A stretch of 64,000 nucleotides of DNA from Candidatus Nealsonbacteria bacterium. GTDB lineage: Bacteria > Patescibacteriota > Minisyncoccia > Minisyncoccales > DAOVPY01. A program made the position numbers and the translations under genes. Below the pieces are notes generated by a model. That model did no database searches and was not told the origin of the DNA. It saw only the letters and a program-made list of their open reading frames with translations. Shown here piece by piece: positions 16,622 through 32,366 of the stretch. Positions within the stretch are counted from its first letter, which is position 1. Every line of letters begins with the position of its first letter. The stretch is from assembly GCA_030628945.1 (NCBI GenBank), contig DAOVPY010000001.1, positions 136,124 to 200,123 on the forward strand, read 5' to 3'.

Positions 16622-18541
16622 ATGTTAATGGCGAATCAAAAAACAAAAAAAGCTCAGGGAATTAAAAATTTAATCAGGAATTTGGCTTCCATTTTTCTTA
16701 TTTTTTTGATTATTTCCGGCATTTTTGCCTTGTTTTCCCAGTCCTTTGAAGAAAAAAACGAAATTTCTTTAACTCAATTAAGGGAAGACATAAATCAAGA
16801 AAAAATTGAAAAAATAATTGTTTCAGGCAGCGACCTTTCTATTGTTTATTTGGACGGAACCGAGGCCGCGTCAAAAAAAGAAGCCGAGATTGCTTTTTCC
16901 GAATGTTTATTGAATTATGGAGTTGAGCGGGAAAAACTTGGTAAAATAGCCGTTGAATTTAAGGAAAAGGGAGGTCTTGCGGTTTGGCTTGGTCCGATTT
17001 CTTTTTTGCTGCTGCCTCTTTTGATTTTCGGACTTTTTTTCTGGATGATTTTTCGCCAGGCGAAAACCGGAGCCATGCAGGCGTTTAATTTCGGCAAAGC
17101 CAGGGCCCGGTTGTTTGGCGCGGAAGGCCAGGACAAAGAAAAAATTACTTTCAAAGACGTTGCCGGCTTAAAAGAAGCCAAAGAAGAATTAAAAGAAGTG
17201 GTTGATTTTTTGAAAAATCCCAAGAAATTTTTAAAAATGGGCGCCAAAATTCCCAGGGGCGTTTTATTGATGGGACCCCCGGGCACGGGAAAGACGCTTT
17301 TGGCAAGAGCGGTTGCCACCGAAGCGAATGTTCCTTTCTTTTCTATTTCCGGCTCAGAATTTATTGAGATGTTTGTCGGTGTTGGCTCAAGCAGAGTTAG
17401 GGATTTATTTTCCACTGCCAAGAAGCAGCAGCCGAGCATAATTTTTATTGATGAACTTGACGCTATTGGCAGGGTGAGGGGAGCGGGAATCGGCGGCGGA
17501 CACGATGAGAGAGAGCAGACCTTAAATCAGATTTTAGTTGAAATGGACGGGTTTGACAGGGATGCCACAACTTTGGTTTTCGCGGCAACGAATCGTCCGG
17601 ATGTCCTTGACCCCGCGCTGCTGCGGCCCGGCAGATTTGACCGCCGGGTGATTTTAGACCTTCCGGATATTAATGAGCGGGAGGCAATTTTGAAAATTCA
17701 CTGCCGCGGCAAACCTCTTGCCCTGGATATTAATTTAAGAGAAATCGCTGAAAGAACTCCGGGATTTTCCGGCGCGGATTTAGCGAATTTAGTCAATGAA
17801 GCCGCTATTTTGGCGGCGCGGAGAAACAAAGAACGAGTTTATCAGGAAGAAATGCTTGAATCAATAGATAAGGTGCTTTTAGGGCCGGAAAGAAAGAGCC
17901 ATATTTTGTCTGAAAAAGAGAAGAAAATTACTTCTTATCATGAGGCGGGCCATGCTTTGGTTTCCAGTTCTTTGCCGAATACCGAGCCAATCAGAAAAAT
18001 TTCCATTGTTGCCCGGGGCCGGGCCGCCGGTTATACCTTAAAACTGCCAACTAAGGAAATACATCTAAAGACAAAATCTCAGTTTTTGGAAGAACTGGCA
18101 ACTTTATTGGGCGGTTATTGCGCGGAGAAGCTTGTTTTTGGAGAAATTACCACTGGCGCGGCAAATGATTTGGAAAAGGCGTCAGATATTGCCAGAAAAT
18201 TAGTAAAGGAATATGGAATGTCTTCCTTGGGACCGATTTCTTTTGGAGAAAAAGAAGAATTTGTTTTTTTGGGAAAAGAAATCAGCGAGCAAAGGAATTA
18301 TTCCGAGAAAGTGGCCACAGAGATTGATAAACAAGTGGCTCAGTTGATTAGAAACGCTGAGAAAACAGCCCAAAAAATTCTCAGGAAAAGAAGAAAATTA
18401 CTGGATAAAATCGCTGAAACTTTAACTGAAAAAGAAACCATTGAGAGAGAAGAATTTGAAGAACTTATTAAACCTCAAAAAAAACAAAAGAAAATACCGA
18501 GAAAAGAGAATAAGGAATTTAGGGTTCACCCTGTTAAATAA
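16622..18541 (+). CDS. ftsH: ATP-dependent zinc metalloprotease FtsH
   Basis: It has two TM segments, Walker A GPPGTGKT, an AAA SRH region and the zinc motif HEAGHA. Confidence 0.95.
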
Positions 18542-18605
18542 TCCCGCTTCCGGCGGGATTGCGCTGAAAGCGCATTTAACAGGGTAAATCCTGTTAAATA
18601 ATTGC

Positions 18606-18679
18606 GCGCGTGTAGCTTAGCTGGTTAAAGCATCCGGCTTATATCCGGAAGATCGTTGGTTCGAATCCAACCACGCGCA
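18606..18679 (+). tRNA. tRNA-Ile, anticodon UAU
   Basis: Hand-folded cloverleaf. Acceptor GCGCGTG/CACGCGC, D stem GCTT/AAGC, anticodon stem TCCGG/CCGGA with loop CTTATAT, T arm GTTGG-TTCGAAT-CCAAC, discriminator A. CCA is not encoded. Confidence 0.85.
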
Positions 18680-18680
18680 C

Positions 18681-18818
18681 ATGAATTTTTGGATACCATT
18701 TTGGTATACAAAAATTCATTTAGGCAGTGGTTCGGGGGCGCTAATTCCCGAATTCCGAACTCCGCTGAAAGCGGAGCGAGGGAATGCCTTCGGGCAACTC
18801 TCCAACCACGCGCACATG
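18681..18818 (+). other. Structured GC-rich insert bounded by an 18-nt duplicate of the tRNA-Ile 3' end
   Basis: TCCAACCACGCGCACATG occurs at 18666-18683 and again at 18801-18818. Between the copies lie a 17/18-bp hairpin (18681-18719) and three stacked hairpins (18730-18802). One of these is TGCC-UUCG-GGCA. Confidence 0.5.
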
Positions 18819-18829
18819 TCTTTCAAAAA

Positions 18830-18903
18830 GGGCGGTTAGCTCATTTGGTTAGAGTGCTTCAGTGACATTGAAGAGGTGACAGGTTCGAATCCTGTACCGC
18901 CCA
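18830..18903 (+). tRNA. tRNA-Val, anticodon GAC
   Basis: Acceptor GGGCGGT/ACCGCCC, anticodon stem CTTCA/TGAAG with loop GTGACAT, T arm ACAGG-TTCGAAT-CCTGT. Confidence 0.9.
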
Positions 18904-18904
18904 C

Positions 18905-19528
18905 ATGGAATTAAAAATTATTTTTGAGGATGATGATTTATTGGTAATTGACAAGCGCGCAGGAAAAAATTCTGACGATTTTGAAAAAAGGGTTCACCGG
19001 TTGGATAAAGATACCTCTGGCATTCTTTTAATCGCCAAAAATAACAAGACGCTTGATTTTTTTCAGAAACAGTTTAAAGATAGAGAAGTAGGCAAAAAAT
19101 ATATTGCGTTAGTAAACGGGAAAATTGAAACAAGCGAAGGAGAAATTAAAACCTTAATAGGCAGAGACAAAAAAAATTACAAAAAGCAAAGAGCGTATTT
19201 GTCAATTGAGCCAGACGCCAAAAGAAGGGGATTGAGAGAGGCGATAACTAAATACAAGGTTTTAGAAAAATTTCAGGATTATACTTTGATTGAAGTTGAA
19301 CCGAAGACCGGCAGAAAACATCAAATCAGATGCCATCTCGCTTATTTGGGACATCCAATTGCTGGCGATAAATTATACGCATTTAAGAATCAACCCTGCC
19401 CCAAGGGTTTAAACAGGCAGTTCCTGCACGCTTTTCAACTGGAAATTAAGATGCCGAATGGAGAGAAAAAAAAGTTTGAAGCAAAATTGCCAAAGGAATT
19501 AAAACAGATATTACAAAATTTATGTTAA
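18905..19528 (+). CDS. RluA-family pseudouridine synthase (no S4 domain)
   Basis: HRLDKDTSG is the catalytic motif. The conserved C-terminal block is HQIRCHLAYLGHPIAGD. Confidence 0.8.
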   Translation: MELKIIFEDDDLLVIDKRAGKNSDDFEKRVHRLDKDTSGILLIAKNNKTLDFFQKQFKDREVGKKYIALVNGKIETSEGEIKTLIGRDKKNYKKQRAYLSIEPDAKRRGLREAITKYKVLEKFQDYTLIEVEPKTGRKHQIRCHLAYLGHPIAGDKLYAFKNQPCPKGLNRQFLHAFQLEIKMPNGEKKKFEAKLPKELKQILQNLC

Positions 19529-19878
19529 CTAAACTTCAAAAATTTATTAAACCTCAGCTTAAAGATGATGTGCCCGACATTAGACCGGGTGATATTGTTC
19601 AGGTTTATCAAAAAATTAAAGAAGGCAAGAAAGAAAAAACTCAAATGTTTAAGGGTTTGGTTTTGGCTCGGAAGCACGGGAAAGGCGCCGGGGCAACCAT
19701 TACCGTAAGAAAAGTAATATCAGAAATCGGGGTAGAAAAAATTTTTCCCATTCACTCTCCGAGCATAGAAAAGATAGAAATAGTTAAACGAAGCAAAGTA
19801 AGGAGGGCAAAGCTTTATTATTTAAGAACCGCAAAAGGAAGAAAGGCGCGGTTGAAGAAAAAAGAGATTAAAAAATGA
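19522..19878 (+). CDS. rplS: 50S ribosomal protein L19
   Basis: PDIRPGDIVQVYQKIKEG...FKGLVLARK...ITVRK...GVEKIFPIHSP is typical of L19. Confidence 0.9.
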   Translation: MLTKLQKFIKPQLKDDVPDIRPGDIVQVYQKIKEGKKEKTQMFKGLVLARKHGKGAGATITVRKVISEIGVEKIFPIHSPSIEKIEIVKRSKVRRAKLYYLRTAKGRKARLKKKEIKK

Positions 19879-19962
19879 GCCCAGGTGGTGGAATTGGTAT
19901 ACACACATGGTTGAGGGCCATGGTTCATTTTGGACGTGCGGGTTCAAGTCCCGCCCTGGGCA
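19879..19962 (+). tRNA. tRNA-Leu, anticodon GAG (type II, long variable arm)
   Basis: Acceptor GCCCAGG/CCTGGGC, anticodon stem CATGG/CCATG with loop TTGAGGG, 15-nt variable arm, T arm GCGGG-TTCAAGT-CCCGC. It starts directly after the rplS stop. Confidence 0.85.
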
Positions 19963-19968
19963 CAAATT

Positions 19969-20042
19969 GGGCGTATAGCTCAGTTGGCTAGAGCGTCTCG
20001 TCTACACCGAGAAGGTCTCCCGTTCAAGTCGGGATACGCCCA
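19969..20042 (+). tRNA. tRNA-Val, anticodon UAC, with C at position 33
   Basis: Acceptor GGGCGTA/TACGCCC, D arm GCTC-AGTTGGCTA-GAGC, anticodon stem TCTCG/CGAGA with loop TCTACAC, T arm TCCCG-TTCAAGT-CGGGA. Confidence 0.75.
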
Positions 20043-20056
20043 CATAAAATTAGGGG

Positions 20057-20085
20057 TTGACAAATTTTTCAAAAAGAGTTATCCT
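20057..20085 (+). promoter_or_regulatory. Sigma70-type promoter candidate
   Basis: GGGG followed by TTGACA (20057-20062), a 17-nt spacer, then TATCCT (20080-20085). Confidence 0.4.
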
Positions 20086-20145
20086 TTATAAAGAAGGAAT
20101 TTGAAAACTTCATATAGGAGAAAAGTAAAAAAAGAGGTGATAGGA

Positions 20146-21615
20146 ATGACAGAAGAAAAAGAAAAGTTTGAGGAACGGATAGAAAAAATCAGGGTTTTAA
20201 GACGCCAGCGCGAATTTTCAAAAGCAAAAAAAGCGCTGGAGAAACTGAAATCCAAATTAAGCCAGGAAGTGCCGAGTGAAGAATATTTCGGCGAGGCTTT
20301 CGTAGGGACCCCTGGAAAATTTCGTTTGATTAAACCGGAGATTCAGCGCAAAATATCGGCCATTATCTACGAAGAGGGCATGATTTGGCAGGAATTAGAG
20401 GATTTCGCCAAAGCAAGAGAACAGTTTGTCACTGCTCTGGAAATGCGGGAGGAAACTCTTCGGAACGCCATTGAAGATAAATCGGCGATTGTGGAGTTTG
20501 CCCTTTCTTCATTCGGGCTTGCCAGAGTGGAGTATTTCAGAATAGGAGCAGTTGACGAGCGTGTATTGTTTTTCTTTAAAATTGCCCGGCAACGAATTAA
20601 AAGAGCCGTGAGAGCCATTGAAGCGTCGGAAAAGGAAGATTTCAATGGCCTGGCAACCCTGTACTATAATCTTTCGTTTATGGAGCAGGCGCGCGGCAAT
20701 TTTAAGAAAGCGATACATGGATATAGACATACCCTGCTATTGCAGAAACAATCTGGCGATGTAAGGGGAGCTTCTTTAGCCCTCGCGGGGATTATTAAAT
20801 CCCTTGATGAGTTTGTTAAAATAGATCCTCTTAGCGCGCTAAGAGTTTTCCAGGAGATAGACCATCTCACATGGATCCCGCAGCAAATAAGAATCATAAA
20901 GGATGCCACCAATGCTTTGAATTGGCAGTTTAGGGAGCAATATCTGGGAGTAAGAGCAGCAATAGACCAAGAAGATTTGTTAGACACATTAGTTGGGATT
21001 GAAACGCCTGATACCTCGGTGGTTCACAGGGAGCCGTCAAGAAGGGCGATAAGCATTCTCAATTTAATGGATAGGAGTATAGAGAGAGCGGAAGAAGCGC
21101 TTTTAGGCCATAATGGAGCGGAGCCGAGCTTGTTGATTTCTTTGCTTGACCAGTCGTTCTTAGAAGAGATAAGACAGGATTATATTGAAGTCAATGATTT
21201 TTTAGAACAACTGGAGCAAAGCGTTCCTGATGTAAGAGAGATGAGCGTTGGCCGTTTGTCCCGGCGAATCAAGAAAGCAATGGCTTTTTTGAAAGAGAGC
21301 GAGTTTACGGGTCAAGAAGAAAGATGCGAATTTGCCCAGGAAGGCATTGATGTAATCCGCCAAATAGTGCTAACTTCAAAGAGCTTAAGTAAAGTAAGAG
21401 AAACGCTCTTGGCGAATTACGGGGTTGATTTAAAGATAGCCCAGCTATGGAAGGATTACCTGGCGAAATCGAATTTTTCAAAAGATTTGGAGCGGCTTGC
21501 GTTAGCGTTCGGGAAAGGATGTAAGTTCGGACCTAAGGACGAGAAATACAACGTTCCTGCAATTAAGAAAACGTTTCAAGAACTCGAAAAAAAACAAAAA
21601 ACAGAGGAAGCCTAA
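20146..21615 (+). CDS. Hypothetical all-helical (TPR-like?) protein, relatively G+C-rich
   Basis: The ATG at 20146 is preceded by GAGGTGA. The TTG start at 20101 in the ORF track is less likely. I recognise no family motif. Confidence 0.5.
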   Translation: MTEEKEKFEERIEKIRVLRRQREFSKAKKALEKLKSKLSQEVPSEEYFGEAFVGTPGKFRLIKPEIQRKISAIIYEEGMIWQELEDFAKAREQFVTALEMREETLRNAIEDKSAIVEFALSSFGLARVEYFRIGAVDERVLFFFKIARQRIKRAVRAIEASEKEDFNGLATLYYNLSFMEQARGNFKKAIHGYRHTLLLQKQSGDVRGASLALAGIIKSLDEFVKIDPLSALRVFQEIDHLTWIPQQIRIIKDATNALNWQFREQYLGVRAAIDQEDLLDTLVGIETPDTSVVHREPSRRAISILNLMDRSIERAEEALLGHNGAEPSLLISLLDQSFLEEIRQDYIEVNDFLEQLEQSVPDVREMSVGRLSRRIKKAMAFLKESEFTGQEERCEFAQEGIDVIRQIVLTSKSLSKVRETLLANYGVDLKIAQLWKDYLAKSNFSKDLERLALAFGKGCKFGPKDEKYNVPAIKKTFQELEKKQKTEEA

Positions 21616-21629
21616 AAAACTTCCTTTTT
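21605..21629 (+). terminator. Terminator candidate
   Basis: AGGAAG-(9 nt)-CTTCCT followed by TTTTT. It overlaps the stop codon. Confidence 0.45.
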
Positions 21630-21681
21630 AATTTGACCAAAATTTGGAAATTAGCTAAACTGAAAATGAACTAAGCAGTAA

Positions 21682-21753
21682 GCCGGGGTAGCTCAGTGGT
21701 AGAGCATTCGCCTGAAAAGCGAAGGGTCGTCAGTCCAATTCTGACCCCCGGCA
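21682..21753 (+). tRNA. tRNA-Phe, anticodon GAA
   Basis: Acceptor GCCGGGG/CCCCGGC, anticodon stem TTCGC/GCGAA with loop CTGAAAA. The T loop reads TCCAATT, which is an unusual C at position 55. Confidence 0.85.
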
Positions 21754-21754
21754 C

Positions 21755-21826
21755 GCGGGAGTAGTTCAGTGGTAGAATGTCTCGTTGCCAACGAGAAGAT
21801 CGCGGGTTCAATCCCCGTCTCCCGCT
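21755..21826 (+). tRNA. tRNA-Gly, anticodon GCC
   Basis: Acceptor GCGGGAG/CTCCCGC, anticodon stem TCTCG/CGAGA with loop TTGCCAA, T arm GCGGG-TTCAATC-CCCGT. It lies 1 nt after tRNA-Phe. Confidence 0.9.
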
Positions 21827-21840
21827 CAAAATAAAAATAT

Positions 21841-24537
21841 ATGAACGGAGGAAATTTTACCCACAAAGCGCAGGAAGCGATAATGCTCGCGCAGAATATG
21901 GCAAGGAAGAGGAATCAGCAGCAGATAGACGCATGCCATCTTCTTTTTGCTTTGCTTTCCCAGGAAGAAAGCCTGGTTTTGACTTTGCTTCAGAAAATGG
22001 GAGTGGATGTTGACGATTTAAAGAAAAAAACGGAAAAGACCTTAGAAGCCATTCCGGTTATTACCACTCCTCAAACCCTTGGCCAATTTTATCTAACCCA
22101 GGATATGGCAAAGATTTTAGACAGAGCCAGGGAAGAATCGGCAAAAATGGGCGACGAATTTATTTCAATAGAGCATTTCTTTTTAGCCCTGCTTGACACG
22201 AAAACCAGGGCAAAAGAAATTTTAGACAAGGCAAATGTTTTACGGTCGGAAGGAGGACCCGCTGTTTTGGAATCCGGGAGTCTGAACTATAACGATGTTT
22301 TGCAAATTTTAGCCAAAATTCGCGGAGGGGCAAGGATTACCGATCCTGAGCCGGAAACAAAATACCAGGTTTTGGAGAAATACGCGCGCAATTTAACCCA
22401 ATTAGCCAGGCAAGGCAAGCTGGACCCGGTGATAGGGCGGGAAAAAGAGATTCGCCGTCTTATGCAGGTTTTGTCCAGAAGAACAAAAAATAATCCGGTT
22501 TTAATCGGCGAAGCCGGAGTTGGAAAAACAGCCGTGGTTGAGGGGTTAGCTCAGAGAATTGTCAGAAGAGAAGTGCCGGAAAGCTTAAAAGACAAAGAAA
22601 TTATTAATTTGGACTTGGGTTCAATTGTTGCCGGAACAAAATACAGGGGAGAGTTTGAAGACAGGATAAAAGCCCTTCTTAAAGAAATTAATCAGTCCAA
22701 GGGAAAATATATTCTCTTTATTGACGAGCTTCATACCCTGGTTGGCGCCGGAGCCGCCGAGGGCGCGATTGACGCGTCCAATCTTTTAAAGCCGGCTTTG
22801 GCGCGCGGCGAGCTAAAAGCAATCGGAGCCACCACTCTGAAAGAATATCAAAAATATATTGAAAGAGATGCGGCATTAGAGAGGAGATTCCAGCCAATTC
22901 ATGTTGCCGAGCCCTCGGTGGAAGACACTGTGGCTATTTTGCGCGGTTTGAAGGGAAAATACGAGCTTCATCACGGCGTTAGGATTAATGATTCAGCCCT
23001 TCTGGCCGCGGCTGAATTGGCTTCACGATATATCACGGACAGGTTTTTGCCGGATAAAGCCGTGGATTTAATGGACGAGGCCGCCTCGGCCTTGCGGCTG
23101 GAACTTGAGTCCGAGCCCGCGGAATTTGACGAGTTCAAAAAACAAATTCAACGTTTAGAAATAGAAAAACAAGCTTTGAAAAATGACGCTTCGCTAAAAA
23201 CCGTCGTGGCAAAGAAAAAAATAAAGGTCTGCGACAGGGCTTTGGGTGATTTGAAAGAAAAAGCAAAAACAATTGAACTCCAATGGAAAACCGAGAAAGA
23301 TTTAATTCAGAGCGTCAGAAATTTAAAAAAAGAGATTGACGGTCTTAGTTTTCAGGCCGAAACCGCGCAAAGAGAAGCCAAGCTTGAAAAAGTGGCTGAA
23401 ATTAAATACGGCAAAATTCCCTTGCTCTTGAAAAAGAAGAAAGCAAAAGAAAAGGAATTAACCCGTTTCCAGAAAAACCGCAAAATTTTGAAAGAAGAGG
23501 TTGGAGAGGAAGAAGTTGCCGACGTTGTTTCTCGCTGGACCGGAATTCCGGTAACTCGGCTTGTAGAAGAGGAAGCCAGAAAATTGGAAAAAATGGAAGC
23601 GCTTATTCAGAAAAGGGTGGTTGGACAAAAACAAGCGATTATTGCGGTTTCCAACGCTATTCGGAGAAGCCGGGCAGGAATTTCCGAGGAGAACAAGCCC
23701 CTGGGTTCGTTTATGTTTTTAGGTCCCACAGGAGTGGGAAAAACCGAATTAGCCCGGGCTTTAGCGGAATTTTTATTTAACGACGAGAACGCTCTGATTA
23801 GATTGGATATGTCGGAATATATGGAAAAACATACTGTTTCCAAAATTATTGGTTCGCCTCCGGGATATGTTGGTTATGAAGAAGGCGGCCAGCTTACCGA
23901 GAAAATCCGACACAGGCCTTACAGCGTTGTTTTGCTTGATGAAGCGGAAAAAGCCCACCCCGAGATTTTTAATATCCTGCTCCAGATTTTTGAGGACGGC
24001 CGTCTTACCGACGCCAAAGGAAGAATGGTTTCTTTCAAAAACGTTATTTTAATTATGACCTCTAATATCGGTTCGGAGCATATTGCTAAAATGAGCACTC
24101 TTGGTTTTATAGGGAGCGAAGACAAAAGAACCAGACAGACATTGGAAGAAAAAGTGCTTGATTCGTTGAGAGAGCGATTTCGTCCGGAATTTTTGAATCG
24201 GATTGACGAAGTTATTATTTTTAATTATCTGGGCAAAACAGAGATAAGAAATATAGTTGATTTAGAATTGGAGAAAGTGATTAAGCGATTAAAAGCCAAA
24301 AATATTGATATAAAAATAAGTCAAACCGCTAGAAAATTTTTAGCGGAGCGGGGTTTTGACCCGAATTTTGGAGCCCGACCCTTGAAAAGAGTTATTCAAA
24401 AATTAGTTCTTGACCCTTTGGCTTTAAAAATCGTTACCAACGAAGTAAAGGAAGACGATAAGGTAACAGTTGATTTCGCAACCGGTCAAATTGTTTTCAA
24501 AGTTTCCAGGGGTTCAACGCGGACCAAAAATCAATAA
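21841..24537 (+). CDS. clpB: Chaperone disaggregase ClpB
   Basis: It has a Clp N-domain and two AAA modules ([18 protein letters not shown]). A long coiled-coil M-domain lies between them. Confidence 0.95.
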
Positions 24538-24541
24538 TCAT

Positions 24542-24577
24542 TTGGGCTGTGCTTAACCGAGTTAAGCACAAGCCCAA
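24542..24577 (+). terminator. Strong hairpin after clpB (terminator candidate, no clear U tract)
   Basis: TTGGGCTGTGCTTAAC-cga-GTTAAGCACAAGCCCAA, 16 bp with one bulge. Confidence 0.4.
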
Positions 24578-24583
24578 TTAGTT

Positions 24584-25321
24584 ATGTTAAACGTGATTTT
24601 TAAAATTTTAGGGATTTTAATTTTAGGCATATTTGGCGGGTTTTTAAGCCAGGCCTTTGTTCTGCCTTATCTTGCCGGACAGCCTTATGCCCAAGATTTT
24701 CAGTTTATCAAGGAGTTTAAAGAAAAGGAGGTGATTATAGAACCAAAGCAGGAGATTATAATTCAGGAAAACACGGCTTTAAAAAAAGCGGTCGCAAAAG
24801 TAAAAAAAGTAGTGGTGGGAATAAAAAGCGAAACAAAGACCGGGAAAATTTTAAAGGGGTCCGGGTTGATTGTGTCTTCCGACGGTTTAGCGATAACGCT
24901 AACAGATATTGCGCCTCCGGGCTCCGAGGTAAGATTGTTTTTAGGCGATGAGGAATTATCCGTTGAGATTTTACAAAGAAAATCCGGCTTGGTCTTGTTA
25001 AAAATTAAGGGAAATAATTTTCCCACCATTGGGTTTGCCGAGTTTGAGAAGATAAAATTAGGGGAAAGAGTTTTTTTAGTCGGAAAGATTTTTCAATTGT
25101 CTAAGGACGAACAAGAGATTACTCAGACAATGGTAAATCAGGGAATTGTTAAATATTATGGACAGGATTCAATTCATACCAACATTTTTGAAAAATATTA
25201 TCTTTGGGGCAGTTCCCTTTTCAATATAAAAGGCAATCTCTTGGGAATAAACACTATTGACCAAGAGGGAAAGGTAATAGCTATCCCAGTTGTTGAAATT
25301 CAAGAATTCCTCGGCTTTTAA
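24584..25321 (+). CDS. Membrane-anchored trypsin/HtrA-like domain protein, catalytic triad not evident
   Basis: GSGLIVSSDGLAITL, LVLLKI and GNLLGINT resemble the S1C protease fold. The His and GNSGGP-type Ser motifs are not conserved. Confidence 0.4.
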   Translation: MLNVIFKILGILILGIFGGFLSQAFVLPYLAGQPYAQDFQFIKEFKEKEVIIEPKQEIIIQENTALKKAVAKVKKVVVGIKSETKTGKILKGSGLIVSSDGLAITLTDIAPPGSEVRLFLGDEELSVEILQRKSGLVLLKIKGNNFPTIGFAEFEKIKLGERVFLVGKIFQLSKDEQEITQTMVNQGIVKYYGQDSIHTNIFEKYYLWGSSLFNIKGNLLGINTIDQEGKVIAIPVVEIQEFLGF

Positions 25322-26889
25322 TGACTTATTCTCAGCTTTTTTTAGGTTTTTGTTTGGCTTTTATCGGAGGTATTTTTTTAAGCTCTGTAATTTATGTTCC
25401 TCAACTTATAATGTTGGGGTTTTTGATTTTAGGAGTTTTTTGGATTTTTGCGTTTTGGAGGCATAAAAAAGTAGTAATTGGCTTTTGTTTATTATTTTTG
25501 ATTTTTGGCGCCTGGCATCATCAGCAGGCAGAATTAAAAACCGTTGAGTTCGGGCCCGGAGACATTGCTTATTACAATAATTTAGAGGCGTTGGTTAGTT
25601 TTCAGGGTCAGGTTGTCAAAGAGCCGGACATAAGAGAAAGCAATATTAAGCTGACCATAATGAGCGCAAAAATATTCATAGAGGACAAGCAAATAACAAC
25701 AACCGGCAAGGTGTTGGTGAGCGTTAATCGCTATCCAAAATATAATTATGGAGATGAATTAAAAATTACTGGCGTCTTGAAAACTCCTTTTACTTTTGAG
25801 GATTTTAATTATAAGAATTATCTGGCTAAAGACGGAATTTATTCAGTGATGTATTATCCCAAAATTGAGAAAAATAAAGGAGGACAGGCCTCCTTTATTT
25901 CTATAATTTATGGCAAGATTTTGGGTTTTAAAAATAAATTAAGGGAATCTGTTTATCAAAATTTATCGCCGCCGCAAAGTTCAATTTTAGGCGCTATTAT
26001 TTTAGGAGATAAACAGAGAATTTCCGCTCAATGGAAGGAGAAGTTTAATATTACCGGCGTGAGGCACGTTACTTGCGTGTCCGGGATGCATATAATAATT
26101 CTCAGCGGGATATTGATGTGGCTGGGGCTTTGGCTGGGCCTCTGGAGGGGCCAGGCGTTTTATTTCGCCATTATTTTACTTTTCCTTTTCATACTTATAG
26201 TTGGAGCGCCGGCCTCGGCAATAAGGGCTGGAATTATGGGCGGCCTTTTTCTTTTTGCCCAAAAGCTCGGGCGGCTGAGGGCGGCTGGAAGGGCGCTCGT
26301 ATTTGCCGCCGCGCTAATGTTAATTCACAATCCCTTGCTTTTAATGTCTGATGTCGGGTTCCAGCTTTCATTTTTAGCCGCTTTGGGAATAATTTATCTG
26401 ATGCCGATTTTTCAATATTGGTTCGCCCCGCGCCAGCCCGTTCCTTTTTGCCCCGCGCCTTTTTTTACGAAAAGGTGCGTGTTTTATATTAAAAAGTTTT
26501 TTTCTCCGGTGAGCGGTCTTCTGGCTATGACTTTCGCGGCTCAGATTTTTACTTTGCCGATTTTAATTTATAATTTCGGTTATATGTCCAGAATCGCGCC
26601 ACTTACCAATATATTGGTTGTCCCTCTTCTGCCCTATATTATGGTGCTGGGTTTTATATTTGCTTTAGCCGGCCTTTTTTCACAGCCCTTGGGTTTGCTC
26701 CTTTCCTTGCCCGCTTGGTTTCTTTTAACCTATATTATTAAGCTCGTTGATTGGTTTTCCGGTTTTTCCTGGGCGTCTTTAACCATAGAGAACATTCACT
26801 GGCTCTGGCTGATAGTCGCTTATCTGGTTTTGGGCTGTCTTACCTATTATCTGACGGAAAAGCAAAGATGGAAATTCTTGGAGTATTAA
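25321..26889 (+). CDS. comEC: ComEC/Rec2 DNA-uptake channel protein (no beta-lactamase domain)
   Basis: It has an N-terminal OB-like region followed by the competence domain. ITGVRHVTCVSGMHIIIL sits within a polytopic membrane region. Confidence 0.8.
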   Translation: MTYSQLFLGFCLAFIGGIFLSSVIYVPQLIMLGFLILGVFWIFAFWRHKKVVIGFCLLFLIFGAWHHQQAELKTVEFGPGDIAYYNNLEALVSFQGQVVKEPDIRESNIKLTIMSAKIFIEDKQITTTGKVLVSVNRYPKYNYGDELKITGVLKTPFTFEDFNYKNYLAKDGIYSVMYYPKIEKNKGGQASFISIIYGKILGFKNKLRESVYQNLSPPQSSILGAIILGDKQRISAQWKEKFNITGVRHVTCVSGMHIIILSGILMWLGLWLGLWRGQAFYFAIILLFLFILIVGAPASAIRAGIMGGLFLFAQKLGRLRAAGRALVFAAALMLIHNPLLLMSDVGFQLSFLAALGIIYLMPIFQYWFAPRQPVPFCPAPFFTKRCVFYIKKFFSPVSGLLAMTFAAQIFTLPILIYNFGYMSRIAPLTNILVVPLLPYIMVLGFIFALAGLFSQPLGLLLSLPAWFLLTYIIKLVDWFSGFSWASLTIENIHWLWLIVAYLVLGCLTYYLTEKQRWKFLEY

Positions 26890-26915
26890 AAAAGGACTGA
26901 GTTTTCTCAATCCCT

Positions 26916-27218
26916 TTAACCGAACATAGGTCCTGTTTTTTCATCTTTTCCTACAAAATCGTCAATCATTTTTCTTAACGCTTTTAATTGTTCTTTTTGT
27001 TTTTTCTTAAATATGACGTGATACGCCTTTTGGGTTTCATCTCGGTAAATAGTGATGAAGAATACTTTTTCTCCATTTTCCTTATCAACGCCCCAAGCTA
27101 CCCATCGGCATTTAATTTTCCTATAATTTTCCCGGAGATTAAATTCTTCTAGTGCATTATCCAAAAAATCTTCTTCTTCTTCGGTAAGTTCTGATTCTTC
27201 TTCTTCGGCTTCGACCAT
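26916..27218 (-). CDS. Hypothetical acidic protein
   Basis: 100-aa ORF with a Glu-rich N terminus. No family was recognised. Confidence 0.4.
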   Translation of the reverse strand: MVEAEEEESELTEEEEDFLDNALEEFNLRENYRKIKCRWVAWGVDKENGEKVFFITIYRDETQKAYHVIFKKKQKEQLKALRKMIDDFVGKDEKTGPMFG

Positions 27219-27303
27219 TTTTCCTTTCCTATTTTTAATGAACCTTGATTATTCTTTTATACTCCAAAATAAAAAATAAGTCAAATTTTTAGGTGTGGGG
27301 GTG

Positions 27304-27331
27304 TTGATTAAAACAAGATTTAGGTTATAAA
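27304..27331 (+). promoter_or_regulatory. Promoter candidate for tRNA-Thr/prfB
   Basis: GGGGG-TG followed by TTGATT (27304-27309), a 16-nt spacer, then TATAAA (27326-27331). Confidence 0.4.
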
Positions 27332-27362
27332 GAGAATAAAGAGCAATCCCGTTTTTTATTAT

Positions 27363-27435
27363 GCCGATGTAGCTCAGCTGGCAGAGCAGACGCTTCGTAA
27401 GCGCCAGGCCGTCGGTTCGACCCCGACCATCGGCT
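27363..27435 (+). tRNA. tRNA-Thr, anticodon CGU
   Basis: Acceptor GCCGATG/CATCGGC, anticodon loop TTCGTAA (stem has one A-C mismatch), T arm GTCGG-TTCGACC-CCGAC. Confidence 0.85.
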
Positions 27436-27471
27436 CTTTTATTTTTAGGAATTTTATGCTATATTTGAAAA

Positions 27472-28582
27472 ATGAAAAGCATTTCTGAGAGAATTAAAGA
27501 TTTACAAACTCATTTCCTCCAAATGGAGGAACGTCTTTGACTTATCCGAGAAGCGAAAAGAAATAAACAGGATAGAAAAAGAAATTCAAAAGCCGGATTT
27601 CTGGCAAAACAAAGAAAAAGCGGCAAAAGCCTCCCGTAGAATAGCCGAATTGAAAGAATTTCAGGAAAGATTTGCCGGTTTCAAAAAGGAGATTGAGGAA
27701 ATACGCGAATTTCAAAAATTAAGAGAGCCGGGACTGGAGAAAGAGATTGAAAAAAAACTTTATGACCTGGAAAAAATGTTTGAGCAGGAAGAGCAAAAAG
27801 TTTTAGCAGAGCGTCTTTCGGGAAAGTATGATAAGGGAAAAGCGATTCTTTCAATATATTCCGGAGCCGGCGGAGCGGACGCGCAGGACTGGGCGACAAT
27901 GCTCTTGCGAATGTACCAGAGATATTCCGAGCGAAAAGGATTCAAAACCAAAATTCTACATCAGTCGTTTGGCCAGCCCGGGGGTCCGGATGGGAGAATC
28001 GGAACAAAATCCGTTACCTTGGAAATTAAAGGGCCATACGCTTACGGTTTCCTGAAAAAAGAAACAGGGGTTCATCGCTTGGTCCGAATTTCTCCCTTTT
28101 CCAGCCAGGATTTACGCCATACTTCCTTTGTTTTGGTGGATCTTCTGCCCGAGATTTCCAAAGTTGAAGAACAGGAAATTGAGGTCAGGCCCGAGGATCT
28201 GAAAATTAATACCTTCAGGGCTTCGGGACCAGGGGGCCAGTATGTCAACCGGAGAGAAACAGCGGTTCGGATTACGCATATTCCCGCGAAAATCAGCGTT
28301 TCCTGCCAAAGCGAGCGGCTTCAGGGATTAAACAAGCAAAGAGCCATGAAACTGCTTTTTGCCAAACTATATCAATTGAAAGAAAGAGAGCGGGAAAAAG
28401 AACTGGCAAAAATAAAAAGCGAAACATCTTCCATTGAGTGGGGAAGTCAAATCAGGTCGTATGTTTTACATCCTTATCAATCGGTCAAAGACCACAGAAC
28501 GGGAGTTGAAACATCAGATGTGGAAAACATCTTAGACGGCGATTTGGATGAATTTATTAATGCGGAACTAAGATATGATTAA
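27472..28582 (+). CDS. prfB: Peptide chain release factor 2, with programmed +1 frameshift (join 27472..27537, 27539..28582)
   Basis: ORF1 reads MKSISERIKDLQTHFLQMEERL and ends at CTT TGA C (27535-27541). An SD-like GGAGG (27525-27529) precedes it. The +1 frame continues DLSEKRKEINRIEKE..., with the SPF motif (RISPFSS) and GGQ (SGPGGQ). Confidence 0.9.
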
Positions 28583-29270
28583 ATTTCAGAATCTTAGCAA
28601 AATTTATTCTTCCAGTTTAGGCCAGAATCCCATTTTTGCCCTAAGAAATGTTTGTTTTGAGATACAAGACAAGGAGTTTATTTCCATTGTGGGGAGGTCA
28701 GGGGCAGGCAAGACCACTTTATTTAGATTGCTTCTTGCCCAGGAAGAGCCAACCCAGGGCAAAATTTTTTTTCAGGACCAGGATGTCCAGGAAATTAAAT
28801 CCAAGCAGATTTTCAATTTGCGAAGAAAGATAGGAATGATTTTCCAAAATTATGAATTATTTCCCACAAGGACAGCTTATGAGAATATTGCTTTTCCAAT
28901 GGAGATAATAGGAGCGAACAGAGGACAAATTGCCAAAGACGTTGCCGAAGTTCTGGAAATTGTCGGGCTTAGCGACAGGAGCCGCAACCTTCCAAAGGAA
29001 CTTTCAGAGGGGGAGAAACAAAGAGTGGCGATTGCCCGGGCTTTAATTCATCGGCCCCAGGTCATTATTGCCGACGAACCCACTGGCAATCTTGACCCCT
29101 GCAATACTCAGGACATAATCAGATTGCTTTATAAAATTTATGAATTTGGAACAACAATGATTTTAGCCACCCACGACAAAGAAGTAATTAACAGTTTGGG
29201 AAAAAGGGTAATAACCCTGGAAGACGGGAGGCTGATTCGCGATGAAGAGAGGGGAAGATTCATACTTTAA
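28575..29270 (+). CDS. ftsE: Cell-division ABC ATPase FtsE
   Basis: Walker A is GRSGAGKTT, the ABC signature is LSEGEKQRVAIARAL and Walker B is IIADEPTGNLD. It is followed by ftsX. Confidence 0.85.
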   Translation: MIKFQNLSKIYSSSLGQNPIFALRNVCFEIQDKEFISIVGRSGAGKTTLFRLLLAQEEPTQGKIFFQDQDVQEIKSKQIFNLRRKIGMIFQNYELFPTRTAYENIAFPMEIIGANRGQIAKDVAEVLEIVGLSDRSRNLPKELSEGEKQRVAIARALIHRPQVIIADEPTGNLDPCNTQDIIRLLYKIYEFGTTMILATHDKEVINSLGKRVITLEDGRLIRDEERGRFIL

Positions 29271-30180
29271 TATGTTTGCTTTACTCAAAAAAATAATTCA
29301 TTACGGCTGGCTGAATTTTCATCGGCAAAGCAGTTTTAGCGTGGTAACCATTTTTATTATGATGGTGGTTATTTTTTTGTTCACCTCTCTTTTTCTTTTT
29401 CAGGGAGCGGTCCAATTTTTAACTTTGAATTTGCAGGAAAAAATTGATATCAGCGTTTATTTCAATCAAGAGTCGTCAGAGCAGGAAATTTTAAAAATTA
29501 AAGAGGAATTAGCAGGAATTCCGCAAGTGGAAGACGTTGAATATGTTTCAAACGAAGACGCTCTGGAAAAATTTACCCTGAGACACCAAAACGATTCAAT
29601 GATAATGGAATCATTGGCTGAAGTCGGCGGCAATCCCTTTTTAGCTTCTTTAAATATCAGGGCGCGGGACTCGGCCCAATATGCCGGTATTTTCAATTTT
29701 ATAACCAATAGTTCTTTCAAGGAAACCATTGCCAAGGTTGACTATATTGAGAAAAAATCGATTATTGAACGACTTTTTTCTTTAACCTCTGATATCAACA
29801 AAGCCGGCATTATTTTTAGTTTGGTTCTGGCTTTCTTCGCTGTTTTGATAGCTTTTAATCAGGTTCGTCTGGCGATTCACAACTCCGGGAAAGAAATTAA
29901 AATTATGCGTTTGGTCGGGGCTCCGGATTTGCTGATTACCGGACCCTTTCTGGTTCAGGGAGTAATTATTGGAATTTTGTCGGTTCTTTTCTGTCTTTTG
30001 ATTTTCTTTCCCGCCTGCTTCTTTTTAAGCCCGAAATTAGAAATAATAATGCCGGGTTTTCATATCTTTCATTATTTTGTCAGCAATTTTTTCTTTATTT
30101 TCTTGATTCAGATGTTGGTCGGCGTGGGCATAGGGGCGTTTTCCAGTTTCATCGCCGTCAGAAAATACCTCAAAATTTAA
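29242..30180 (+). CDS. ftsX: Cell-division permease-like protein FtsX
   Basis: The topology is 4 TM helices with a large first extracytoplasmic loop. IKIMRLVGA is the conserved block. An alternative start lies at 29272. Confidence 0.8.
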   Translation: MKRGEDSYFNMFALLKKIIHYGWLNFHRQSSFSVVTIFIMMVVIFLFTSLFLFQGAVQFLTLNLQEKIDISVYFNQESSEQEILKIKEELAGIPQVEDVEYVSNEDALEKFTLRHQNDSMIMESLAEVGGNPFLASLNIRARDSAQYAGIFNFITNSSFKETIAKVDYIEKKSIIERLFSLTSDINKAGIIFSLVLAFFAVLIAFNQVRLAIHNSGKEIKIMRLVGAPDLLITGPFLVQGVIIGILSVLFCLLIFFPACFFLSPKLEIIMPGFHIFHYFVSNFFFIFLIQMLVGVGIGAFSSFIAVRKYLKI

Positions 30181-30251
30181 TGCCGGGTCGGCTAACGGTA
30201 GGCCAAATGCCCCTGGAGCATTGAATCTTGGTTCGAATCCAAGCCCGGCAG
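30181..30251 (+). tRNA. tRNA-Gln, anticodon CUG, with C at position 33
   Basis: Acceptor TGCCGGG/CCCGGCA (U1-A72) with discriminator G. D stem GGCT/GGCC, anticodon stem AATGC/GCATT with loop CCCTGGA, T arm CTTGG-TTCGAAT-CCAAG. It starts directly after the ftsX stop. Confidence 0.75.
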
Positions 30252-30416
30252 CACTTCGACTTCGCGGAGCGAAGGCGAAGTGCCCTGAGCTTGCCGAAGG
30301 GCAATCTCAGATAGGGCACTTTGATTTATAAAACATCACATTTTCGCTCCGCTACGCTCAGCGCAAGCTCTTCGCCGCGCGTCGAAGTGGGCTGAGTTCG
30401 TCGAAGCCCATTTTTT
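30252..30416 (+). other. GC-rich multi-hairpin element between tRNA-Gln and the GIY-YIG gene
   Basis: Hairpins lie at 30252-30282 (CACTTCG.CTTCGC-GGA-GCGAAG.CGAAGTG) and 30285-30310 (CTGAG.TTGCC-GAAG-GGCAA.CTCAG). A TGGGC...GCCCA+T6 hairpin (30388-30416) ends at the ATG. The element shares GCGGAGCGA and the TGCC-tetraloop-GGCAA hairpin with 18760-18802. Confidence 0.5.
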
Positions 30417-30674
30417 ATGTATTTTGTATATCTTCTACAGTGTGAAGATGGAAGTTTTTACACCGGAGTAACCTCAAATTTTGAAAAAAGATTTGATGAG
30501 CATAAAACAAAAAGTGGGGGTTGGCATACAAAAATTCATAAACCAGTTGAGATTTTATATACGAAAAAGTATCCAACAAAATTAGAGGCGCTCAGACGCG
30601 AAAAACAAATTAAAGGATGGAGGAGAGAAAAGAAGTTAAATCTAATTAAATTCGGCAAACCAATCATTCAATGA
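30417..30674 (+). CDS. GIY-YIG nuclease-family protein (UPF0213-like)
   Basis: The start MYFVYLLQCEDGSFYTGVTSNFEKRFDEH matches GIY...YIG with the conserved downstream R and E. Confidence 0.8.
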   Translation: MYFVYLLQCEDGSFYTGVTSNFEKRFDEHKTKSGGWHTKIHKPVEILYTKKYPTKLEALRREKQIKGWRREKKLNLIKFGKPIIQ

Positions 30675-30775
30675 ATTCAGGGTTATCCTGAACGAGTTTG
30701 AAGGCCAATTCTTAGCGCTCGGCCGGCCCTGAATTTATTGAAGGGTTCTCCCGACCGAGAGGCCTCTATAAATTT

Positions 30776-31096
30776 ATGGAAAAAGAAGATTTTAAAAAAG
30801 CAGAAAAGCTATTTAATGCCACACAAAAAGTAGTAGATTCTAAAATTCTCTCAGAGAAAGAAAAAGAGCCTTTCCAAAAAATAAATGCTCAACTTGCTGG
30901 TGTTCTGCTTAGTTCGTGGCTACCAAGGGATTGGGGACGGAAAATTATAATGTTAATTATTCTCCTCTTAGCTGTTTTTGGTGCCCTTAAGATAGATGTT
31001 TTATTTTTATTACTATTATTAATATTGCCAATTTTTTCGCCGAGAATGATGGGTGGATTAATAATGTTTATTGGTAGAATAATGGGAAATAAATAA
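30776..31096 (+). CDS. Small membrane protein, unknown function
   Basis: 106 aa with a soluble N-terminal half followed by two hydrophobic helices. Confidence 0.45.
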   Translation: MEKEDFKKAEKLFNATQKVVDSKILSEKEKEPFQKINAQLAGVLLSSWLPRDWGRKIIMLIILLLAVFGALKIDVLFLLLLLILPIFSPRMMGGLIMFIGRIMGNK

Positions 31097-31100
31097 ACCT

Positions 31101-31562
31101 ATGTTCGATTTTAAGAAAAAAAATCAAGCCGTTGAAGACGAATTACTCAAAGAATTTTTTCCGCATATTTTTGATAAATTCAAAAATTCTATTAGGGAAT
31201 ATTGGGGCAAGAAAGATAAAGAAAATTGGCAAACTATTTCTGAAAAATTAAAAGAAATAAACATAAAAACCACAGAAAAAACGGCGAAAATGATAGGTGT
31301 TAAGGAAATAAATAAAGAAATTATAGAAAGATTAGACGCCACCGGTAGTATTATAAGCAATATGCTTATCGCTCAGGGAGAGCTTTGTTCCAAAGAATGT
31401 AGTAGAAGAGAAATGACAGATGAAGAGACTAATTTTACACTCTATTTTTTTTGGAAAACTTTGAGCCAAAGGCAATTCATATTTCCGAAAGATATTTCTT
31501 TATTGGAAGAATTTTTTACTTGGTTTTCGTTGAAAAAGGAGAATAAAAAAATTAAAAAATAG
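31101..31562 (+). CDS. Hypothetical protein
   Basis: 153-aa ORF, 4 nt after the previous stop. No motif recognised. Confidence 0.45.
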   Translation: MFDFKKKNQAVEDELLKEFFPHIFDKFKNSIREYWGKKDKENWQTISEKLKEINIKTTEKTAKMIGVKEINKEIIERLDATGSIISNMLIAQGELCSKECSRREMTDEETNFTLYFFWKTLSQRQFIFPKDISLLEEFFTWFSLKKENKKIKK

Positions 31563-31615
31563 GGGATATTGACCCTTATTTTTTAGTTAATTTTGACAAA
31601 ATCAACTGGTGACCA

Positions 31616-31711
31616 ATGAGCGAAGGAGTTTTTTACCGCTTTGGCATTTTAACCGACCGGCTAAAGGGCTTTGAGTCTGAGGAGGATTTACTAAAATTAA
31701 TTGAAAAATAG
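31616..31711 (+). pseudogene. 31-codon ORF/remnant MSEGVFYRFGILTDRLKGFESEEDLLKLIEK, homologous to a start-less remnant at 32318-32410
   Basis: The two copies encode ...LTDRL(K/R)GFESEEDLLKLI.... Several differences between them are synonymous (cta/tta, gag/gaa). Confidence 0.4.
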
Positions 31712-31766
31712 AACTATTTTAAAGAAATATAAAGAATAATTAGATTAGAGAATTAATTTAAAACTT

Positions 31767-32366
31767 ATGATTAAATCAAGAGATGAATATTCAGAAAATC
31801 TTGAAAGCCAATATAGAAGAATGGGAAGAATTTATGAAGAAATTATAAAAGATTTTGAAAGCACGACTTTTTCAAAAAGTTTCCAAGAAAGATTAGATAA
31901 AGTCTATGATTTTTTTTTAATCTGTTACCACCTTAGAGAATGGGTTAAAAAAGATGCTAAGGTTGGTCAGACAATCAAAGATAAATTGCCCACTTTTGAA
32001 AAAGAAGATTCTCCCGTTCACTTCCAAATGTGCAGAGATTTATGTAATAGGTCTAAACATGTCACACTAGAAACGAAAGAACATTATAAACCTAACGATG
32101 TTAATACAAAAATTGTTCCTTGTGGAGGTGGTATTTTTTCGGTCCACAAAAAAGAATTAGAAGAAGCACGAAATAAAAAAGAGACTATTCATCTTAAAGA
32201 AGAAGATGAAATATTTTTAGGTAACTTTTTCGTCACTTTTAGGGGTAGAAATTATGACTTAAAGGGAGTTGTTCAGGCCTGCATGCATGAGTGGAAAGTC
32301 TTTTTTGAAGAAAATGATTTATTATTACCGAGGAGTACCCCTTTTCCTATCTCACCGACCGGTTAA
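31767..32366 (+). CDS. Hypothetical protein
   Basis: 199-aa ORF. FFLICYHLREWVKKD ... LCNRSKHV is faintly reminiscent of HEPN-type helical nuclease families. This resemblance is very weak. Confidence 0.45.
   Translation: MIKSRDEYSENLESQYRRMGRIYEEIIKDFESTTFSKSFQERLDKVYDFFLICYHLREWVKKDAKVGQTIKDKLPTFEKEDSPVHFQMCRDLCNRSKHVTLETKEHYKPNDVNTKIVPCGGGIFSVHKKELEEARNKKETIHLKEEDEIFLGNFFVTFRGRNYDLKGVVQACMHEWKVFFEENDLLLPRSTPFPISPTG

Follow-up and report, generated by a model that had tools for sequence, protein, structure and literature searches.

What is the structured DNA that separates tRNA-Ile from tRNA-Val in the window, that is, in the whole 64-kb stretch of DNA analysed here? tRNA genes are classic landing sites of mobile DNA, and the original prediction held that a duplicated tRNA-Ile 3' end brackets 117 nt of GC-rich, hairpin-forming DNA, which could be either the scar of an integration event or a small RNA linked to the tRNA. 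The reading that we prefer, at a probability of about one half and on the basis of sequence comparisons, is that the insert would be one copy of a family of non-coding, non-autonomous cassettes of approximately 135 bp that target tRNA 3' ends within one Patescibacteria-type order.

The insert between tRNA-Ile and tRNA-Val

An exact pattern search placed the 18-nt sequence TCCAACCACGCGCACATG at exactly two sites in the 64-kb window, 18666-18683 and 18801-18818, and no further site was found in the window with up to three mismatches. The pair exceeds chance (0.02 expected; two or more copies in 0 of 100 shuffles). The locus is composed of the following features.

18606-18680 (3' end at 18679/80), plus strand: tRNA-Ile(TAT), intact, the target gene (ARAGORN; Rfam tRNA, 76.8 bits)
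18666-18683, plus strand: direct repeat copy 1, covering T-loop base 60, the 3' strand of the T-stem, the 3' strand of the acceptor, the discriminator and 4 trailer bases (exact pattern search)
18681-18719, plus strand: AT-rich hairpin with 17 of 18 pairs (sequence and fold), missing at empty sites and therefore part of the inserted DNA
18724-18738, plus strand: inverted arm GCAGTGGTTCGGGGG, a degenerate reverse complement of the T-stem 3' and acceptor 3' strands of the tRNA (folds and family-wide arm analysis)
18741-18801, plus strand: conserved core (covariance models R1, 89.5 bits, and R2, 75.6 bits; pair counts and column make-up)
18747-18750 with 18791-18794, plus strand: core stem P2a (family pair counts)
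18752-18756 with 18781-18785, plus strand: core stem P2b (family pair counts)
18760-18776, plus strand: core hairpin P3, CTCCGC-TGAAA-GCGGAG (sequence and family pair counts)
18786-18800, plus strand: near-invariant core segment GCCTTCGGGCAACTC (column make-up)
18786-18797, plus strand: TGCC-TTCG-GGCA hairpin (sequence)
18801-18818, plus strand: direct repeat copy 2, followed by the native 11-nt spacer ahead of tRNA-Val (pattern search and empty-site comparison)
18830-18904, plus strand: tRNA-Val(GAC) (ARAGORN), 149 nt from tRNA-Ile here and 10-11 nt from it in relatives

The originally described hairpins are present, with pairing at 18681-18719, 18760-18776 and 18786-18797, and the bracketed DNA is indeed not tRNA-like: ARAGORN and Rfam detected neither a tRNA nor any Rfam family at E ≤ 1 in the 117 nt between the repeat copies. 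The insert had no Rfam match at E ≤ 1 to the RtT RNA (RF00391) and none to known small ribozymes or introns, and cmscan at E ≤ 1 over 17000-32000 returned tRNAs only, plus one sub-threshold antisense match on a tRNA. Neither a gene nor an ORF remnant was found within the 117 nt, and neither a sigma-70-like promoter nor an intrinsic-terminator-like site in 18400-19000.

The Ile-Val stretch of 138 nt folds with -54.8 kcal/mol (z = -4.6 against shuffles). In the fold of the Ile copy the arm GCAGTGGTTCGGGGG pairs with CTCTCCAACCAC..GC of repeat copy 2, which is predicted to create a helix resembling the acceptor and T-stem, with bulges, in which the core replaces the T-loop. The opposite strand of the same stretch folds equally well (-54.7 kcal/mol, z = -5.3), an observation that speaks against reading the insert as a mobile cassette.

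The region 18622-18858 is bridged with 0 differences by contigs from three DNA runs of one study, possibly made from the source sample, and because these contigs bridge it identically the Ile insert is not an assembly artefact of one record alone. A run from a second study produced one 173-nt contig containing tRNA-Ile and the hairpin, followed by a differing arm and AATTCCCGAA; this single contig suggests that a related strain may also carry an Ile cassette.

Empty sites in relatives

The gap between tRNA-Ile(TAT) and tRNA-Val(GAC), 149 nt here, measures 11 and 10 nt in two relatives without the insert, namely the one genome of the same family and another genome of the same order. Synteny is kept at the locus, with a long ORF, tRNA-Ile(TAT), tRNA-Val(GAC), a pseudouridine-synthase-like gene, tRNA-Leu and tRNA-Val following one another. 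Because the tRNAs of the relatives stand 10-11 nt apart, about 135 bp have been gained here, made up of the hairpin, the arm, the core and one repeat copy. A second cassette of the genome lies between tRNA-Tyr and tRNA-Thr in a gap of 147 nt, and the corresponding gap is 6 nt, and empty, in a relative. The hairpin is missing at the empty Ile-Val and Tyr-Thr sites of relatives and is thus not native to them, and the closest relative has no cassette. The insert is a gain relative to these genomes that left the tRNA intact, which bears out the original idea that a duplicated tRNA 3' end flanks inserted DNA (Ile-Val empty in two relatives, Tyr-Thr in one); other copies of the insert exist elsewhere.

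Size and distribution of the family

The genome to which the window belongs comprises 825 kb in 17 contigs with 34-41% G+C per contig. In four of its 49 tRNA genes, Ile-TAT, Tyr-GTA, Ser-TGA and Arg-GCG, the last 13 nt recur 121-149 nt downstream with at most two mismatches, and in none do they recur upstream. A fifth core was found at the start of contig C13 with no tRNA upstream, and a core of about 60 nt is common to all five. Covariance searches of the genome and the lineage, as proposed originally, were run with models of this core. The first model, R1, gave exactly five full-length matches in the genome (E values from 2.5e-22 to 9.1e-14) in addition to five weak partial ones, and had matches in 10 of 100 relatives. 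Within the 825-kb genome the core is found at tRNA tails only, without dispersal.

The second model, R2, was rebuilt from 18 copies; of 151 genomes sampled from the same order, 17 had matches to it, 37 in total. In a class-wide sample, also of 151 genomes, matches occurred only in the window's genome and one other of the same order, and the genomes marked as the same class in that sample gave no family match. A same-strand tRNA is located at most 260 nt upstream of 23 of the 37 R2 matches, and in 19 of these 23 the core is followed directly by an exact copy of the tRNA end of 16-33 nt. Among the 14 matches without a tRNA, five lie less than 140 nt from a contig end and nine have ample upstream sequence, and the tRNA-less copies still have the arm, the core and a tRNA-like tail. 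The nine with ample upstream sequence are to be counted against the mobile-cassette reading. Many cassette copies are situated at contig ends.

When GTDB species representatives were scanned with an exact pattern of the core, 75 loci were found, and 40 of these are in low-GC records titled Nealsonbacteria, Staskawiczbacteria, Patescibacteria group or 'uncultured Saccharibacteria'. An upstream tRNA accompanies 31 of these 40 Patescibacteria-titled loci compared to 0 of the 35 loci from other phyla, and the latter (34 high-GC loci and one from Bacteroidota) were taken as chance matches of a GC-rich pattern. The core pattern had 0 matches in viral contigs. The partner tRNAs, taken from the R2 matches and the pattern scan, represent at least 20 anticodons.

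Selection on the core fold

When 67 distinct copies were aligned to the model, an alignment that leans towards the model structure, 94.6% of the core cells were paired compared to 83.8% in shuffles, 10 of the 15 pairs were changed on both sides, and no slid pairing register came close. Compensatory changes were present in four of the five pairs of P2b (AAUUSC/GSAAU) and in all six pairs of P3, a hairpin of variable length; P2a (CCCG/CGGG) showed one-sided variation only, from C to U, with a wobble pair kept. The core is a selected fold in which P2b and P3 covary, and together with the many copies that the covariance model finds this agrees with the predicted selection on the structure of the bracketed DNA. 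Wobble cells outnumber A-C cells in the core by 16 to 3, and the tRNA-sense strand is therefore favoured.

The unpaired GCCUUCGGGCAAC is nearly invariant in the 67 distinct copies. Such very strong conservation of unpaired bases suits an RNA used by the host equally well, and to that extent it tells against the mobile-cassette reading.

A single-sequence fold of the Ile copy prefers local hairpins, and the family data favour P2a, P2b and P3. One of the hairpins in the original description, GTTCGG...CCGAAC, does exist in the Ile copy, but it is not the pairing conserved by the family, which joins AATTCC with GGAAT and CCCG with CGGG. The local GCC-UUCG-GGC hairpin, whose bases never vary in the family, may also form.

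Anatomy of the cassette

The order of the parts is constant. An intact tRNA is followed by an AT-rich hairpin, a degenerate inverted arm, the core and an exact direct copy of the tRNA end, with 48-75 nt between the tRNA end and the core in single units. The direct copy extends from the T-loop to 2-12 or more nt past the mature end and has no CCA, and the length of the duplication varies between 16 and 35 nt; two tRNA-Gln loci have a downstream copy in which several positions do not match the end of the tRNA itself. As read by eye from 34 elements, the direct copy starts at the first T-loop base (±1) in 29, at base 6-7 in four including the Ile copy, and at an unclear position in one. These starts are the two stem-loop junctions of the T-arm.

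The hairpin is present in every family member with a sequence that differs between copies. Its loop is the centre of a long imperfect palindrome in which the tRNA end, the trailer and the hairpin face the arm, and because of this palindrome the arm can pair with either copy of the tRNA end. It is the target tRNA that the inverted arm copies and not the other end of the element. MITE-type terminal inverted repeats and a fixed-length target-site duplication are absent from the cassette, and none of the loci inspected showed an autonomous partner sharing its ends; what the cassette has in common with MITEs is many copies, a conserved sequence and no coding capacity.

Across the 34 elements the pairing between arm and direct copy amounts to 261 G-C, 196 A-U and 80 G-U pairs, and some arms, for example L081 and L093, are near-perfect mirror copies of the T-arm. 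The specificity of the arm for its own tRNA is real but moderate. Ranked by duplex energy, the cognate tRNA comes first in 5 of 34 elements and among the top three in 11, and ranked by identity to the 13 most variable tail bases it comes first in 10 and among the top three in 16. The strand preference of the arm is weak (-15.4 vs -14.0 kcal/mol, and in 21 of 34 elements the plus strand is the better one), and wobble-type mismatches number 55 vs 38. We read the arm as target-derived and thereafter drifting, with the core and the direct copy being kept. The possibility that the arm acts as a strict guide was dropped since its cognate specificity is only moderate. This moderate specificity and the weak strand preference also weigh against a mobile cassette.

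Movement between tRNA genes

For 29 of 34 cores the nearest core is found at a tRNA of a different amino acid (from another genome in 23 cases and from the same one in 6), and for 5 at a tRNA of the same amino acid. Cores identical over 40-47 nt are present at Gln, Val and Ser, and at Leu and Gln, in different genomes, and the Ile and Tyr cores of the window's genome are 95% identical over 58 nt. Among 50 copies from genomes with at least two distinct cores, 22 have their nearest core in the same genome. Tandem arrays exist as well, and at L127 two adjacent units have a near-identical arm and core and hairpins that cannot be aligned.

The core has moved between tRNA loci, with the proviso that short and strongly conserved cores may look identical without recent transfer. 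Taken together, the relatedness of the cores, the empty sites and the patchy distribution point to repeated insertion at different tRNA genes and not to one old inherited RNA gene.

A putative mechanism of insertion

If the family is mobile, the cassette would be copied in by machinery encoded elsewhere, and the insertion event would take place at the two stem-loop junctions of the T-arm. Because the copies include the trailer and lack CCA, the template would be DNA or a precursor and not the mature tRNA. The form that is recognised is probably, by analogy with folded recombination sites, the tRNA-sense single strand, with the inverted arm and the direct copy paired and the core closing the stem. 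Candidate enzymes would be a tyrosine recombinase of the host or a tiny GIY-YIG nuclease, a kind of protein that is abundant in this order. The genome has only two integrase-family (PF00589) genes, at C13:35078 and C17:74566, both on other contigs, and a single reverse-transcriptase gene, also on another contig.

Two further candidates were considered and dropped. In tRNA-primed reverse transcription the arm would be the primer-binding site, but the arm and the direct copy follow the trailer and lack CCA/TGG. A tRNA-like gene on the opposite strand conflicts with the core wobbles, which favour the tRNA-sense strand, and its T-loop would be TTCTCG, by eye without the conserved A58.

The Ile-Val and Tyr-Thr cassettes are most likely transcribed passively, as precursor spacer inside tRNA operons. 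Transcription is probable because each of the two cassettes separates a pair of tRNAs with a gap of 6-11 nt in relatives and because no promoter-like site lies in the Ile-Val cassette, and it is this probable transcription that keeps alive the host-RNA alternative discussed below. Among the sequencing runs listed for the stretch there was no RNA run.

A bolder version of the preferred reading would make the family a mobile element of a new class. In this version the cassette, about 135 nt long and without genes, would imitate its own target when folded as a single strand and would act as a self-retargeting integration module. A host or trans-acting enzyme would then insert it behind any tRNA gene, at the junctions of the T-arm, and both the tRNA end and the target mimic would be rebuilt from the new target each time. 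We consider this version speculative and rather unlikely.

Alternative explanations

The alternative that survives best is a structured RNA of about 100 nt that is used by the host and cut from the tRNA precursor, with ends that mimic the acceptor/T-arm helix of the neighbouring tRNA. The core would bind a protein or an RNA, for example titrating or guiding a factor that processes or binds tRNA, and new copies would arise by duplication. We regard this as unlikely, but as an explanation to be taken seriously. The covarying core stems, the near-invariance of the unpaired GCCUUCGGGCAAC and the wobbles that favour the transcribed tRNA-sense strand (16 vs 3) all fit such an RNA, and so does a direct copy that stays exact as the arm drifts; furthermore, two copies stand between tRNAs that are 6-11 nt apart in relatives, where the downstream tRNA needs read-through. 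It is harder to reconcile with a family that is present in 17 of 151 genomes of the order, in none marked as the same class in the class-wide sample, and not in the closest relative. Moreover, the partner tRNAs vary by genome and the cores are independent of tRNA identity, the acceptor-like helix is degenerate with bulges and mismatches, and tandem arrays and tRNA-less copies exist.

Template switching without any dedicated machinery could in principle take place between the T-arm and the downstream hairpin, with the core copied from an already existing cassette via T-arm microhomology common to tRNAs. We find this improbable, since the hairpin is foreign to the Ile-Val and Tyr-Thr sites, since the same precise junctions at dozens of loci and the strong purifying selection on the core are hard to obtain by accident, and since the family is restricted to one order although T-arms are universal. 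The forward/inverted/forward order with breakpoints at the T-arm junctions is nevertheless what two inverted repeats would be expected to produce, and a target-derived arm and direct copy around a shared core, with hairpins that vary from copy to copy, are in keeping with it.

A third alternative is that the cassettes are stripped-down derivatives of the tiny GIY-YIG nuclease cassettes that occupy tRNA 3' ends in the same order. One such gene is found in the window behind tRNA-Gln, preceded by a GC-rich folded leader.

30253-30416: GC-rich leader after tRNA-Gln
30417-30674: 85-aa GIY-YIG ORF, the only PF01541 match of the genome

NCBIfam gave this ORF a weak sub-threshold match to a group I intron endonuclease family. 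The element after tRNA-Gln at 30260-30310, originally thought to be related to the Ile insert, turned out to be part of this leader and not a member of the family: its first hairpin received a partial match of 8.8 bits from R2 with the filters off, and the plan that it shares with P2b-P3 (outer-stem / GA / inner-hairpin / GCC) is a resemblance and not membership. The 9-mer GCGGAGCGA that had suggested the relationship is present three times in the window compared to 0.23 expected, but all three copies are in the locally GC-rich Ile insert and tRNA-Gln regions, and the excess is inflated by this GC-richness, which whole-window shuffles do not model.

Tiny GIY-YIG genes were found in 117 of the 151 genomes of the order, in 16 of the 17 with cassettes and in 101 of the 134 without, a weak co-occurrence. 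Ten GIY-YIG ORFs were inspected: a same-strand tRNA precedes four of them at a distance of 34-240 nt and a fifth at 391 nt with other sequence between, and in one relative the direct copy of a family member has a GIY-YIG cassette immediately behind it. The core-like hairpin was found at none of 12 other GIY-YIG loci, where the model gave a single match of 10.5 bits. With this co-occurrence and no core-like hairpin at the 12 loci, the link between GIY-YIG genes and the cassette was given up. The neighbouring position in that relative, the gene behind tRNA-Gln and the shared hairpin plan speak for a derivation from GIY-YIG cassettes; against these stand the low scores of the leader and of the 12 loci, the weak co-occurrence and the lack of ORF remnants in the cassettes, and we consider the derivation highly improbable.

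Finally, integration into tRNA genes classically leaves direct repeats that cover the tRNA 3' end from the T-loop onwards, and one of the two original suggestions was an att-like scar, which would be the decayed attL/attR remains in tRNA-Ile of a prophage or integrase-borne island that had once been larger. This is hardly credible in view of a unit of about 135 bp with a conserved core that recurs at 5 loci here and at dozens elsewhere with no ORF remnant or anything else protein-coding inside, integrase-family genes that are on other contigs, and 0 matches of the core pattern in viral contigs.

Relation to known systems

As an insertion at a tRNA gene that regenerates its target the cassette would be of a known kind, with a core that has no Rfam match. 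It resembles the integrative elements of tRNA genes (tyrosine-integrase islands, prophages and CIMEs) in its site at the tRNA 3' end, in the intact gene, in the empty sites, and in direct repeats that begin in the T-loop and run beyond the 3' end. It differs from them in being 135 bp long and gene-less with no integrase nearby, in carrying an inverted copy of the target and a conserved folded core, and in using at least 20 tRNA species.

The RtT repeats behind E. coli tyrT (RF00391) are non-coding, contain a copy of the tRNA 3' end and can be tandem. The cassette is likewise a non-coding unit behind a tRNA gene with a tRNA 3'-end copy and with tandem arrays, but it differs from them in core, lineage and range of tRNA partners, in agreement with the missing Rfam match at E ≤ 1.

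Integron attC sites and the CTX-phage attP(+) site used by XerCD are folded single-strand recombination sites with an imperfect inverted repeat, where the target is regenerated and arrays are formed. The likeness of the cassette is by analogy only, in a stem that would imitate the target and a variable or structured closing region, and shape alone is comparable. The stem sequence of the cassette changes with each tRNA target, unlike that of attC, and the R-box consensus of attC is not evident.

Single-domain GIY-YIG (Ssn) proteins can be strand-specific single-stranded DNA nucleases, binding to hairpin repeats in the vicinity of their own genes (PMC11893778). The hairpin repeats described there (NTS/SRM) are similar to the cassette in being small and oriented with a tolerated variable loop, and the window's genome likewise encodes a single-domain GIY-YIG protein flanked by GC-rich hairpins. 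The cassette differs in that its core is found at tRNA tails only and is not dispersed, and no significant model match lies beside GIY-YIG genes. Because Ssn nucleases bind nearby hairpin repeats, the 85-aa protein may by analogy be called a testable candidate enzyme, no more. The phage T4 SegB protein is reported to be a free-standing GIY-YIG homing endonuclease in a tRNA cluster that spreads by break and repair (PMC2330249). The analogy would extend to mobile DNA at tRNA genes; unlike SegB the cassette is gene-less, and dependence on a nuclease is a guess. We found no description of the cassette in the literature on tRNA-gene repeats, minihelix RNAs, GIY-YIG proteins at tRNA genes or Ssn nucleases.

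Implications

The cassette breaks assemblies, and it accounts for some of the 'extra tRNA ends' in genome annotations of these bacteria. The known kinds of mobile DNA that use tRNA genes are kilobase-sized and have an integrase, and here we find a gene-less unit of about 135 bp at no fewer than 20 tRNA species. If it is a host RNA, it would be a new mimic of the tRNA end that is made from tRNA precursors. If it is mobile, the reading that we prefer, bacteria with very small genomes would possess a way of inserting DNA that has so far gone unrecognised, and the cassette may offer a compact way of placing DNA at tRNA genes harmlessly.

A GIY-YIG gene and its leader at the end of tRNA-Gln

30253-30674, flank to about 30770: end of tRNA-Gln(CTG), leader and GIY-YIG ORF

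Directly 3' of tRNA-Gln(CTG) lies a 164-nt GC-rich folded leader that begins CACTTCGAC, followed by a single-domain GIY-YIG ORF of 85 aa, which is the sole match to PF01541 in the genome. Because sequence resembling the 3' flank of tRNA-Gln in relatives (TTAGCGCTCGG...CCGACCGAGAGG) is found here only downstream of the ORF, the GIY-YIG cassette looks like an insertion at the tRNA-Gln end. A GIY-YIG gene in relative L063 is preceded by a leader similar to this one.

A second repeat family and a dispersed mini-hairpin

18527-18604, upstream of tRNA-Ile: CCCTGTTAAAT...ATTTAACAGGG repeat unit
18762-18774 and whole genome: small hairpin CCGCTGAAAGCGG

The CCCTGTTAAAT...ATTTAACAGGG units form a second repeat family, present at about 17 places in the genome (e.g. 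C3:17573, C9:11708 and C13:51739, each named by contig) and built as an outer palindrome around two GC-rich hairpins that are small and variable (54-66 nt). They frequently sit at the exact end of an ORF, and the long ORF preceding tRNA-Ile takes its final codons and stop codon from the unit at 18527-18604. In contigs of two runs 18542-18603 is replaced by 13-23 different letters, and judging from these contigs this unit is therefore variable among strains or relatives.

Counting both strands, the genome contains 11 occurrences of the small hairpin CCGCTGAAAGCGG, which also turns up within CCCTGTTAAAT repeat units. One copy of this dispersed element may be nested in the conserved cassette core as its hairpin P3.

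The tRNA-Ile neighbourhood and cassettes lacking an upstream tRNA

tRNA-Ile(TAT)-type genes are uncommon in bacteria. One is encoded at 18606-18680, and in relatives it is conserved together with the adjacent tRNA-Val.

Relative L031, about 1499-1900: apparent tRNA halves

Here two apparent tRNA 5' halves lie between tRNA-Ile(TAT) and tRNA-Val(GAC), and two matching 3' halves follow downstream of tRNA-Val(GAC) in reversed order, an arrangement that would fit tRNA genes lying inside each other's anticodon loops.

Seven relatives (L018, L051, L057, L048, L138, L056 and L019) carry copies of the non-coding cassette without a tRNA upstream. Instead a GGTTCTAAC-like motif recurs upstream of these copies, followed about 25-30 nt on by ...AGCA, which would be a tRNA-end-like segment that is either decayed or non-canonical.
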